Positions 10,061 to 12,474 of a stretch of 25,904 bases of DNA are shown one piece after another. The notes under the pieces are model-generated. The model saw only the letters and a program-made list of their open reading frames with translations, was not told the DNA's origin and searched no databases. Source of the stretch: a virus (Duplodnaviria > Heunggongvirae > Uroviricota > Caudoviricetes); the IMG/VR virus record IMGVR_UViG_2724679293_000033, positions 1 through 25,904 of that record, one strand, 5' to 3'. The translations under genes and the position numbers were made by a program. How positions within the stretch are numbered: the stretch's first letter is position 1; each line of letters opens with the position of its first letter.

Positions 10061-10152
10061 GGTGACTTCTGCGCTAAACGGGGACGTTTATGCGCACATA
10101 CAATCCAAACTCTCTTCTCCCTCCACAGATGCAGAAATACACCTGCGATTTT
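10061..10152. repeat. 92-bp direct repeat, copy 1 (left boundary of accessory cassette)
   Basis: ggtgacttctgcgctaaacggggacgtttatgcgcacatacaatcc... matches 12383-12474 with about 5 mismatches by manual alignment. Confidence 0.9.
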
Positions 10153-10583
10153 TTGCATTCGGTGTTTTTGGCAGCCAAGAACAGGGAGTCTCTGTTTGTC
10201 TGGCGGCTAAAGGTGATATGGAAATCGTGATGTCTTAGCCTAAAGTAGTTGCAACAGTTGGAGCGATTATGGTGGTAGTAGTGATCATCGCGCCCCCCAT
10301 ATGCAAGGGTTGACGACATTATTTATCCGGCGCTATATTCTGTGCGTTGCCGCAAAATCGGCACACGGGATTGGCGTCCCGGACATCAAAACGACGCATA
10401 ACCGCGTTCGCGGTTTTTTTATGCGCAGTGCACGTCTACACAAAAATTATGGTGGGCTGTGTGAGGGCTTCTTCGGAAGCGCCGGATTTCGTTTTGACCG
10501 GTTACGCCAACCTTGCACAGTCCACCACCAGTCGATTGGCGTCGTCGGTGGTGATAGCTCAAATTCAAAACGAGATTATCGCT

Positions 10584-11192
10584 ATGGTCACTCAGCTCGC
10601 ATTCCGCGATGTAAAATTCACTCCTATAAATCACAACAACCAGATCTGGTTTACCAGCAAAGAATTGGCGGCAGCATTAAAATATGCCAGCACCAAAGCA
10701 GTAACCGACATCTACAACAAAAATATTGATGAGTTTACTGACGGAATGTCTCAGGTCGTCGAATCAACGACCTCAGGAAATTATCGTAAGAAGACTCGCA
10801 TTTTCTCCCTCCGTGGCGCCCATCTGATCGCCATGTTCGCCCGCACTCCTGTGGCCAAAGAATTCCGCCGCTGGGTGCTGGATATTCTCGATCGAGAAAT
10901 TCAACAATCCCCAATCACAAAACAATTCACTGATAACGAACTTTGCACACTTGCTTGGTTATGGCGGGCAAGTGACACAATGTTAACCGCTTGCCAAAAC
11001 GTCACTCCGCTTCTTCAGGTAGCAGAACACCGCGAAGCCGGTCGCTTCACTTCAATCGAACAAGAATATCCCCGGATACTCAATAAGGCACAGGCAATCC
11101 TTGCCAGAGAAACGGCACATGTAAAATTCCGGCCGTGGCAGGATGATAAGTGGAGTCGAGTATTGACGCATTTACGTTCTGAACGGCTGTAA
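10584..11192 (+). CDS. Bro-N domain protein (antirepressor-like)
   Basis: From MVTQLAFRDVKFTPINHNNQIWFTSKELAAALKY the N-terminus has the Bro-N pattern; the upstream in-frame extension reported by the ORF track is probably not translated. Confidence 0.7.
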   Translation: MVTQLAFRDVKFTPINHNNQIWFTSKELAAALKYASTKAVTDIYNKNIDEFTDGMSQVVESTTSGNYRKKTRIFSLRGAHLIAMFARTPVAKEFRRWVLDILDREIQQSPITKQFTDNELCTLAWLWRASDTMLTACQNVTPLLQVAEHREAGRFTSIEQEYPRILNKAQAILARETAHVKFRPWQDDKWSRVLTHLRSERL

Positions 11193-11491
11193 TAAAGTTG
11201 CGGGAGAGAAATGCCGCTAGTATTTTGTAATTAATTGAATGCTGACGGTTTAATGAGAAGTCAAGAACACTACTTGTACTATAATCGTTCGATGTTAATG
11301 AGGGTTTGATGCAAAAAATGAAGTGATTGACCCTAAATTTGCGCGATCAGCGACAGATTGTACACCGAGATCCTGTGGGCTGGAATTTGCAGAGAAATAC
11401 CGAAAATGATATCCAATATTGTTTTCAGTTCCTACATCATACCTGATAAGGGTATAATCATAAAAATTAGGATAATTCAAGTTATAATTGT

Positions 11492-11908
11492 ATGAATAAA
11501 AACGACCTTGAAGCATTATCTGACACTAGGCTTAATGAGGCCAAATGCTTGCTTGATCATGGCTTTTTTCATGGTGCATATTATCTTTGTGGGTATGCAG
11601 TTGAATGTGCATTGAAGGCCTGTATTGCCAAGTCATTTTTACAACATGAGTTTCCAAACAAAAAAGTCGTAAATGATTCATATACTCATGATTTGTCGCA
11701 ACTTCTCAAAATTGCCAACTTACATCAAATTTTGATTGCTGACGCAAAAAATGATGTTTCGTTGGAGATTAACTGGTCGGTCGTTAAAGACTGGAGCGAG
11801 CAATTTAGATACGACAATAACATAAGTAAAGCTATGGCCGAACAATTGTTTGATGCTGTAGGTGACCAAAATTCTGGAGTTTTGAAATGGGTAAAAGCAC
11901 ACTGGTAA
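11492..11908 (+). CDS. HEPN-like domain protein (138 aa)
   Basis: Helical signature GFFHGAYYLCGYAVECALKACIAK and downstream THDLSQLL resemble HEPN domains; canonical Rx4-6H arginine not evident; AT-rich; weak RBS. Confidence 0.55.
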   Translation: MNKNDLEALSDTRLNEAKCLLDHGFFHGAYYLCGYAVECALKACIAKSFLQHEFPNKKVVNDSYTHDLSQLLKIANLHQILIADAKNDVSLEINWSVVKDWSEQFRYDNNISKAMAEQLFDAVGDQNSGVLKWVKAHW

Positions 11909-12288
11909 TCGGCAGAGAGTTGACAAAAGATATGGAATTCTCAGGTCAATTTTTGTTAAAAAAACTCAAGTTACAGAATTTAACTATTGATGCTGCAATG
12001 TGGTTTTATTACCCAGATCTATCTTGGAGATATATTTTAGTTATCAGTGACTTCTCAGAACGTGGGCCGGCAGAAATATATAGAAAAATCAGTGAGATAA
12101 ATAGAAATAGCATATCAAAAAAGTATAAGCCGATACCATTAGAAGCAATTGAGGCTAAGGGGGATTCAGCTTTTGTTTATAAAATGTTAAAAGGATTTGC
12201 TAGAGTCAACGATGGTAAAGTTCGCGTTTCTAATTCTATGGTAAATGGTTTAGAAATCGTTGACTGTCTGATCTATGAGTTAAAATAA
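11887..12288 (+). CDS. Uncharacterised 133-aa protein, overlapping partner of the HEPN-like gene
   Basis: Start overlaps the upstream gene by 22 nt; GGAG ~7 nt upstream; no family recognised (no GS...DxD nucleotidyltransferase motif seen). Confidence 0.55.
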   Translation: MGKSTLVIGRELTKDMEFSGQFLLKKLKLQNLTIDAAMWFYYPDLSWRYILVISDFSERGPAEIYRKISEINRNSISKKYKPIPLEAIEAKGDSAFVYKMLKGFARVNDGKVRVSNSMVNGLEIVDCLIYELK

Positions 12289-12382
12289 GAAATCTCTTGC
12301 TGGGTATCATTATTGTTTAAATGACTTTTGATTTTCAATAATCAACTTGTCATAATTAAGTCACCGGAGTTTGAACTCCTCC

Positions 12383-12474
12383 GGTGACTTCTGCGCTAAA
12401 CGGGGACGTTTATGCGCACATACAATCTAAACTATCTTCTCCCGTCACAGATGCAGAAATGCACCTGCGATTTT
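12383..12474. repeat. 92-bp direct repeat, copy 2 (right boundary of cassette, just upstream of ninB)
   Basis: Copy of 10061-10152; preceded by a 9-bp-stem hairpin (12361-12387, tcaccggag...ctccggtga). Confidence 0.9.

Follow-up and report, generated by a model that had tools for sequence, protein, structure and literature searches.

In phage 82, the record of the orf33 region (X92588; Mahdi et al. 1996, as cited in PMC12844172) is annotated with putative −35 and −10 hexamers, a hairpin labelled 'possible regulator-binding site', the small open reading frame (ORF) orf33 and the overlapping orf151, and the DLP12 prophage of Escherichia coli K-12 carries the same 33-codon ORF, named ylcH, upstream of ybcN. 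Anti-repressor synthesis is known from the Gifsy-1 isrK-orf45-anrP system, where a short small RNA (sRNA) activates translation of its own read-through mRNA (PMC4825925), and from the P1 immI region (c4-icd-ant). Accessory-gene and defence hotspots have been described in P2/P4 phages (PMC9122126) and, for lambdoid phages, as 'morons' and mosaic junctions. Here we describe a locus combining elements of these systems in a 25,904-nt stretch of viral DNA (hereafter the window; Caudoviricetes, IMG/VR record IMGVR_UViG_2724679293_000033, positions 1 to 25,904), in which two direct repeats at 10061–10152 and 12383–12474 (copies 1 and 2) bound a segment just upstream of ninB. We propose, with a probability of about 0.75, that the repeat derives from a leader preceding the nin operon, that this nin leader occurs twice owing to an upstream anti-repressor module with a copy of its own, and that both copies serve as recombination anchors. 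The proposal is built on the identity of the element, an RNA structure seen by covariation, the conservation of a small ORF, the diversity of the cargo genes and a chimeric genome with a single leader.

The two copies are in direct orientation and identical at 87 of 92 positions, with mismatches at 10106, 10112, 10122, 10123 and 10139, in agreement with the approximately five mismatches given in an initial annotation of this DNA. They share a perfect block of 46 bp (10060–10105 and 12382–12427, the additional pair 10060/12382 being also identical). Chance can be excluded as the origin of the repeat because the runner-up direct repeat within 9000–13500 is merely 20 nt long at 75% identity; furthermore, a covariance model of the leader (R1) matched copy 1 (122 bits) and copy 2 (186 bits) and nothing else in the window. 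Weaker homology extends beyond the core (10006–10167 vs 12328–12489, 81%), its upstream part covering ~55 bp. The 5′ extensions of the two copies are ~60% identical, and the 3′ end of copy 1 (GCATTCGG) is closer to leaders of the phi80/L076 type than to copy 2 (L numbers denote the individual loci and genomes compared). The two copies are thus different alleles rather than a fresh duplication. Across two-copy loci the repeat ranges from 104–174 bp at 79–89% identity up to 497 bp at 99%. The longest of these, in L065 (133–629 and 2596–3092), takes in ~400 bp upstream of both leaders, which suggests that unequal exchange or gene conversion has recently taken place between both slots of that locus. 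Elsewhere in the window, identical 18-mers (TTGATGCAGATCAATTAA) at 18353–18370 and 18828–18845, 475 bp apart, hint at a further direct repeat.

From its sequence, the repeat can be recognised as the core of a nin leader of ~190 bp, found ahead of ninB/ybcN in lambdoid prophages of the phage 82/DLP12/phi80 type. Copy 2 is the same element as the phage 82 orf33 and DLP12 ylcH regions (93–97% identical; 93.5% over 1175 bp of X92588, spanning orf33 and orf151), and all the features annotated in the phage 82 record have their counterpart in it. The window differs from phage 82 and DLP12 in having a second, diverged leader 2.3 kb upstream; neither the phage 82 annotation nor Rfam contains the four-hairpin structure, the covariation or the spread through Enterobacteriaceae found here. 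The window sequence is present at 100% in E. coli O26:H11 strain 11368, where PGAP annotated copy 2 as a 33-amino-acid (aa) protein and copy 1 as a pseudogene fragment.

An exact-pattern scan of IMG/VR yielded 118 loci with the leader, and a scan of one genome per species yielded 27 loci, in Enterobacter, Citrobacter, Escherichia, Trabulsiella, Lelliottia, Scandinavium and others. A single leader directly 5′ of ninB was found in phage 82, PhiR30_1, 4A7 and ~105 of the 118 IMG/VR loci, which bears out the earlier suggestion that the repeat is a conserved nin-region sequence. In a set of 5426 complete E. coli genomes the leader was present in 3017 and the full two-copy segment in 176. Two leaders occurred only together with an isrK-ant anti-repressor module, in the order leader, ylcH′, hydrophobic ORF, isrK, C4, ant, cargo, leader, ninB; this was the case in the window, in phages PhiR26_1 and IdasGreatGrand, in nine IMG/VR loci and in genome L132. 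The sequence upstream of either copy varied right up to the −35 hexamer. A search for the segment that comes after copy 1 (~10153–10345) in phages without this copy found no match: the segment always follows copy 1.

The product expected from recombination between the copies was simulated by joining 9700–10105 to 12428–12800, and the resulting junction was searched in the same 5426 genomes. A one-piece match over 100% of the junction was obtained in NJS001 and STEC799, relatives in which the left flank is joined to one leader, as expected for the empty site anticipated in the initial annotation. The gene order in NJS001 is P, the VCH_CASS14 gene, one leader and ybcN. Up to 10105 its leader is identical to the copy 1 side and shares the degenerate hexamers and hairpin 1; from 12382 to 12526 it is identical to the copy 2 side, with each of the five bases specific to copy 2 and a rare allele (TTTCTTTAT). 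Since the identity switches from copy 1 to copy 2 within the 46-bp identical block, the crossover can be placed there. These sequence comparisons support the capture and loss of cargo by homologous recombination. The idea of a cassette captured and lost through its flanking repeats is supported in outline; the left border of the cargo itself is the 3′ end of ant, and NJS001 may represent either a loss or a pre-insertion state, the direction assigned to the event being an interpretation.

Leader copy 2 is a predicted four-hairpin RNA transcribed from the + strand (12359–12515). It is preceded by a promoter-like region (12328–12356, +) detected by a promoter scan, with a −35 hexamer TTGATT (12328–12333), a 17-nt spacer and a −10 hexamer CATAAT (12351–12356) accompanied by a TG. 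The hexamers TTGATT and (C/A)ATAAT and their spacing are kept from phage 82 to phi80, the sequence of the spacer being variable, and we consider them a putative sigma-70 promoter. A palindrome TTGAT-N8-ATCAA (12328–12345) lies over the −35 hexamer; this was its sole exact copy in the window, and its interpretation as an operator shared with other phage promoters was rejected on that ground. HusR (YnfL), a reported rusA regulator, was likewise rejected as a regulator acting at the leader, its site being located between ybcO and rusA. Hairpin 1 (12360–12388, +) has a G+C-rich 10-bp stem and a conserved loop (CCUGAACAA) and is followed by UUCU; hairpin 2 (12393–12417, +) has 10 bp, a GGGA loop and the ylcH AUG in its 3′ arm; hairpin 3 (12450–12481, +), a 13-bp stem within ylcH, shows almost no variation; and hairpin 4 (12484–12511, +) would sequester the Shine-Dalgarno sequence and start codon of ninB. 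The ylcH/orf33 gene (12412–12513, +; 33 aa) ends with a TGA stop overlapping the GTG start (12510) of ninB/ybcN (12510–12965, +; Pfam NinB, named ybcN by PGAP), the first gene of the nin operon.

The initial annotation had correctly placed the end of copy 2 about 25 nt before the ninB ribosome-binding site (24 nt to the Shine-Dalgarno GGAGG at 12499–12503). It had also noticed a hairpin before copy 2, which indeed exists; its extent is 12360–12388 with a 10-bp stem and a 9-nt loop, instead of 12361–12387 with a 9-bp stem, and the first part of the repeat forms its 3′ arm. The further proposal that the 92-bp unit may carry a portable promoter or terminator is not supported: the core comprises the 3′ arm of hairpin 1, hairpin 2, ylcH codons 1–21 and most of hairpin 3, and the promoter-like hexamers are located upstream of it, in the extension, where conservation is poor; in copy 1 they are degenerate.

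The leader structure was analyzed with model R1, which was built from 13 phage 82-type leaders and then used to realign other sequences. Among 75 distinct leaders, 96.3% of the cells of the alignment pair, as compared with 34–52% in slid-partner controls, double-sided changes affect 21 of the 44 pairs, and the covariation score reaches 0.203 vs ~0.04 in the slid controls. The values were higher still in 33 mostly independent species representatives (97.3% of cells paired, 23 pairs double-changed, score 0.376). Covariation was strong for hairpins 1, 2 and 4, and the many G-U pairs make the structure compatible with a + strand RNA only. RNAfold predicted the same four hairpins for the leaders of diverged phages. 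Hairpin 1 escaped RNAalifold when a plain MAFFT alignment was used, in which indels had misaligned it, and the covariance-model alignment recovered it. No family was found for either leader copy in a scan of Rfam 15, both at the gathering threshold and at E ≤ 5. It has to be noted that copy 2 of the window and the NJS001 leader share the rare allele at 12470–12481, TTTCTTTAT instead of TTTTTTGCAT.

Several observations indicate that ylcH, with 31–33 codons, behaves as a real gene. Indels among relatives are multiples of 3 nt, the peptide core and the reading frame are conserved across genera, and its stop overlaps the start of the next gene (ATGA or GTGA) throughout more than 20 genera and species. 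Furthermore, this overlap is retained with at least three different NinB/YbcN subtypes as the following gene. Because of the stop/start overlap and the burial of the ninB Shine-Dalgarno sequence in hairpin 4, we infer that translation of ninB is coupled to that of ylcH, which is probably the simplest reading of the leader. A literature search on ylcH and ybcN found nothing relevant in the collection of papers searched.

The segment between the copies starts, after copy 1, with an anti-repressor module. An isrK promoter (10310–10339, +; TTGACG, 18-nt spacer, TATATT), matching consensus at 10 of 12 positions in the scan and kept in every isrK locus examined, precedes the isrK sRNA (10348–10420, +; Rfam RF01394, 64.1 bits with a gathering score of 50). 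The terminator scan placed an intrinsic terminator within isrK (10400–10415 plus a T run, +), and a c4-a1b1 target motif overlaps isrK (10333–10385; RF03163, 40.6 bits). The C4 antisense RNA (10445–10532, +; Rfam RF01695, 82.5 bits with a gathering score of 45) is followed by the gene of the anti-repressor Ant (10584–11192, +), with Pfam domains Bro-N and P22_AR_C and Ant PHROGs. From the Rfam identity of the two RNAs, the isrK promoter and terminator and the PHROG family of the downstream gene, this can be identified as a module of the P1 immI / Gifsy-1 isrK-orf45-anrP type; neither RNA had been recognised in the initial annotation. The order of promoter, isrK (a1b1) with terminator, C4-like RNA and anti-repressor is the same as in Gifsy-1 (PMC4825925) and P1 immI. 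Unlike the Gifsy-1 module, which is located downstream of a Q-like gene, that of the window lies between the replication genes and ninB, and isrJ was not found. It differs from both systems in that a copy of the nin leader and a small hydrophobic ORF stand before it, and in its short C4-overlapping ORF, which in the window is fused in frame to ant. This ORF starts at an upstream in-frame ATG (10449), so that a 247-aa long form of Ant is possible in the window lineage; in relatives it has 36 aa and lies in another frame. No signal of pairing between IsrK or C4 and either leader copy was detected with RNAduplex against 300 dinucleotide shuffles (z from −1.0 to +0.7). In L074, an ORF ~490 bp upstream of isrK, before the isrK promoter, combines the N-terminal portion of a NinB of the lambda type with the C-terminal portion of Ren in a fusion, and looks like a mosaic joint of P22-like and lambda-like early regions.

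Leader copy 1 (10037–10188, +; core 10061–10152) was delimited with model R1 and RNAfold, the latter predicting hairpins 1′ (10038–10066, ~6 bp), 2′ (10071–10095) and 3′ (10128–10159). It is homologous to true leaders until about ylcH codon 21–26 and does not adjoin ninB. Alignments revealed a degenerate promoter-like region and palindrome (10006–10034, +; TTAATT vs TTGATT in copy 2). The ylcH′ ORF (10090–10230, +; 46 aa) has codons 1–21 homologous to ylcH and an unrelated tail, and it overlaps the start of a small hydrophobic ORF (10218–10313, +) whose relatives encode 29–31 aa and which gave a weak match to PHROG 4612. The stop of the hydrophobic ORF overlaps the −35 hexamer of the isrK promoter. 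In the window it contains a nonsense codon at position 7 (TAG, 10236–10238); intact versions are present in relatives, for example MEIVMSWPKVVATVGAIMVVVVIIAPPICKG. In-frame indels and synonymous changes among relatives suggest that it encodes a real single-helix membrane peptide, possibly toxic. In addition, a 29-nt inverted repeat with 83% complementarity connects the region of this ORF (10263–10291) with the 5′ part of rusA (13452–13480); RNAs of the same strand could pair through it, and it may also be due to chance.

Copy 1 could alternatively be a working, portable expression gate for the hydrophobic protein and an entry point of transcription into isrK-ant. In relatives the ATG of the hydrophobic ORF precedes the ylcH′ stop by 10 nt, an arrangement that would suit coupling and resembles the one between ylcH and ninB, and the copy 1 alleles of L026, L063, L065 and L002 keep perfect hexamers, palindrome and hairpin 1. 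In L022 and L063, moreover, hairpin 3 carries a C-to-U change that creates a stop codon in ylcH′ and is nevertheless compensated by a G-to-A change on the opposite arm. On the contrary, the ylcH′ start is replaced by ATA in L003, a TAG stop is gained in L022 and L063, a frameshift has occurred in L026, and isrK-ant modules work elsewhere without any leader copy, directly after ren. These ylcH′ lesions in relatives, together with the nonsense codon and the degenerate hexamers and hairpin 1 of the window, indicate that copy 1 is decaying. We therefore regard a working gate as doubtful in general; it is possible for the intact alleles, and copy 1 of the window looks like a relic.

The diversity of the cargo next to the leaders speaks for their role as recombination anchors. 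In slot 2, delimited by the 3′ end of ant and by leader 2, at least eight unrelated inserts were found over 50 loci, with 2 further loci empty, so that the check proposed in the initial annotation, whether the repeat flanks different cargo in other prophages, comes out in the affirmative for leader 2. The inserts encode a 118-aa protein (16 loci), a HEPN pair (7), a 169-aa protein (7), a 260-aa HNH-like protein (6), a reverse-strand 225-aa protein (5) and an esterase (4), the others being found in 1–2 loci each. Pfam and PADLOC searches of the alternative slot 2 cargos were nearly blank, the exceptions being a DNA polymerase III theta subunit, a weak HNH match and a weak invasin-like match. 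Slot 1, upstream of copy 1, is occupied in the window by a VCH_CASS14-family gene (9484–9831, − strand; Pfam PF18315, E 5.7e-20; PHROG 5959). This 'integron cassette protein' gene sits on the opposite strand between P and copy 1, where the window phage has no ren. The corresponding slot of PhiR26_1 contains the defence gene PD-lambda-1, a likeness to the defence hotspots of the P2/P4 type. As in the temperate-phage hotspots (P2/P4, PMC9122126; lambdoid 'morons'), conserved flanks surround small, low-GC, mostly uncharacterised gene sets; the difference from the P2/P4 hotspots is that the right-hand anchor is here a structured leader with a small ORF, present twice, which results in two slots and a deletable segment. 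A literature search for a described lambdoid ninB hotspot found only the work on P2/P4 hotspots.

The slot 2 cargo of the window consists of two genes preceded by an AT-rich spacer (11193–11491, +) that is 97–100% identical wherever the HEPN pair sits in this slot. The first gene (11492–11908, +) encodes a HEPN protein of 138 aa (Pfam PF05168, E 3e-6, 27.8 bits with a cutoff of 22; PADLOC candidate PDC-M28A, E 1.8e-7; PHROG 5737), and the second (11887–12288, +), which overlaps it by 22 nt, encodes a partner of 133 aa whose fold shows weak similarity to minimal nucleotidyltransferases (MNT). The Bro-N and HEPN genes that the initial annotation had placed between the copies are both confirmed by Pfam. 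Its description of the whole cargo as AT-rich holds for the HEPN pair (G+C content of 0.33–0.37) and not for the Bro-N gene (0.47–0.49). The partner had no match in Pfam or PADLOC, nor by Foldseek in the PDB, and a sequence search of the PDB found nothing for either protein. The window pair resembles the HEPN-MNT toxin-antitoxin and defence pairs and cannot be filed as one, because the partner is matchless in Pfam, PADLOC and PDB and the HEPN protein lacks the Rx4-6H motif by inspection, its only candidate Arg (FRYDNNIS) having no His within 4–6 residues; the HEPN gene is the first of the two. Any function assigned to the pair is putative. Acinetobacter prophages harbour both genes, overlapping by the same 22 nt, in the interval from the lysis genes to the integrase, and the pair is also located upstream of ninB in Klebsiella lambdoid prophages. 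In addition, it was found with other ant alleles and both with and without copy 1 (L011, L079). The HEPN pair is thus a unit separate from the anti-repressor module, and the borders of its exchange are, given the other ant alleles and the loci without copy 1, the 3′ end of ant and leader 2 instead of the two repeats. The single cassette of the initial annotation consequently resolves into an anti-repressor module with its own leader and a separately exchangeable HEPN slot.

These observations can be accommodated in the following scheme. Sigma-70-like hexamers, overlapped by a palindrome, would start a leader transcript that folds into four hairpins, with the ylcH start in hairpin 2 and the ninB start and Shine-Dalgarno sequence in hairpin 4, and translation of ninB would be coupled to that of ylcH. 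The anti-repressor module (hydrophobic ORF, isrK, C4 and Ant), located upstream of the resident leader, would have brought its own, now partly degenerate, leader. Each leader, as the only conserved sequence between variable stretches, would mark the right edge of a cargo slot and provide a homology anchor: slot 1 would extend from P to leader 1, holding the VCH_CASS14 gene in the window, and slot 2 from the 3′ end of ant to leader 2, holding the HEPN pair. Cargo would be swapped among phages by homologous recombination, with the leaders and the 3′ end of ant as its sites, and recombination between copy 1 and copy 2 would delete the 2.3-kb segment.

Several points weigh against this proposal. 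NJS001 diverges ~7% from the window after 12526, so it is not a recent derivative and could be the pre-insertion state; from this divergence it follows that a further exchange took place. The left border of HEPN-pair exchange is ant, so that the repeats do not define the HEPN cargo. With respect to the promoter, the copy 2 hexamers match the consensus at 9 of 12 positions, and the region-wide count of promoters was no higher than in shuffled sequence; both promoter activity and translational coupling are read from the sequence. Regarding the structure, hairpin 3 barely varies and its support comes mostly from one-sided G-U/G-C changes, and the alignments used for covariation were model-fitted, so that pairing is somewhat inflated, although independent single-sequence folds with RNAfold agree. 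The TTTCTTTAT allele weakens the lower stem of hairpin 3, and the full hairpin is no longer predicted by RNAfold. Neither leader of the window is therefore a textbook example, copy 1 having a degenerate hairpin 1 and hexamers and copy 2 a weakened hairpin 3.

A more ambitious version, which we hold only tentatively and at well below even odds, regards the nin leader as an undescribed cis-regulatory RNA, a leader-ORF switch gating the nin operon with its recombination genes and Q. Hairpin 2 would mask the ylcH start, hairpin 4 would mask the ninB ribosome-binding site, and the near-invariant hairpin 3 would be a candidate binding site. The gate would be portable and would have been copied before the hydrophobic peptide and the anti-repressor module, in a two-slot hotspot for defence-type cargo that includes the HEPN pair with its divergent nucleotidyltransferase-like partner.

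The position of the leader also recalls that of lambda tR2, which is found where the nin region starts, directly before ninB. The repeat could accordingly be an equivalent terminator or insulator that blocks read-through into the ant module and the nin operon. In this respect, hairpin 1 has a G+C-rich 10-bp stem followed by UUCU, the terminator scan flagged weak terminator-like sites at 10130–10147 and 12452–12469, and it detected no terminator of the HEPN pair's own before the leader. However, the tract after hairpin 1 is neither U-rich nor conserved (UUCUGCGC, GGGGUUGCGC or ACCUUUGCGC), and the T run of the flagged site (12470–12475) belongs to hairpin 3, as the 3′ arm of its 13-bp stem. Besides, the conserved hexamers would initiate transcription exactly at hairpin 1, and the structure extends across a conserved ORF and reaches the ribosome-binding site of ninB, as would fit a translational leader. 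The leader thus differs from tR2 by the lack of a U tract, the promoter-like hexamers, the four hairpins and the coupled ORF, and we consider a terminator quite unlikely.

Finally, a target duplication produced by a mobile cassette inserting into ylcH (by transposition, in an integron-like manner, or by insertion after a tandem duplication) would account for direct repeats that bound a segment of foreign composition and for the integron-cassette-family VCH_CASS14 gene just upstream, but it is very improbable, given that the copies neither enclose nor adjoin a gene for an integrase, a transposase or another recombinase, that 92 to ~160 bp far exceeds the length of a target-site duplication, that the copies are different alleles by both their 5′ extensions and the 3′ end of copy 1, that the length and identity of the repeat vary among two-copy loci, and that the borders and end points of the cargo vary and do not coincide with the repeat. 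Insertion of an integron cassette, or any site-specific insertion, was rejected on the same grounds: no recombinase in or beside the segment, and variable cargo end points.

Taken as a whole, the locus represents ordinary lambdoid mosaicism at an accessory-gene hotspot, and it refines current views without overturning them. What is modestly new is the natural chimeric recombinant and the conserved four-hairpin leader RNA with its coupled small ORF. Together, ylcH, long a hypothetical 33-aa ORF, and its leader form a conserved structured element absent from Rfam. The locus provides a sequence-level case of how lambdoid prophages shuffle accessory and defence genes, in which a short conserved leader is the crossover point and a natural chimera is on record. 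The interval from P/ren to ninB in DLP12-type prophages emerges as a two-slot cargo hotspot, and its at least eight uncharacterised gene sets merit anti-phage screening. The leader sequence is present in more than half of the complete E. coli genomes. The probable coupling of ylcH and ninB makes the control of the nin operon, poorly understood outside lambda, amenable to testing; if true, the reading of the leader as a switch would concern nin-operon expression across a large part of the enterobacterial lambdoid prophages.

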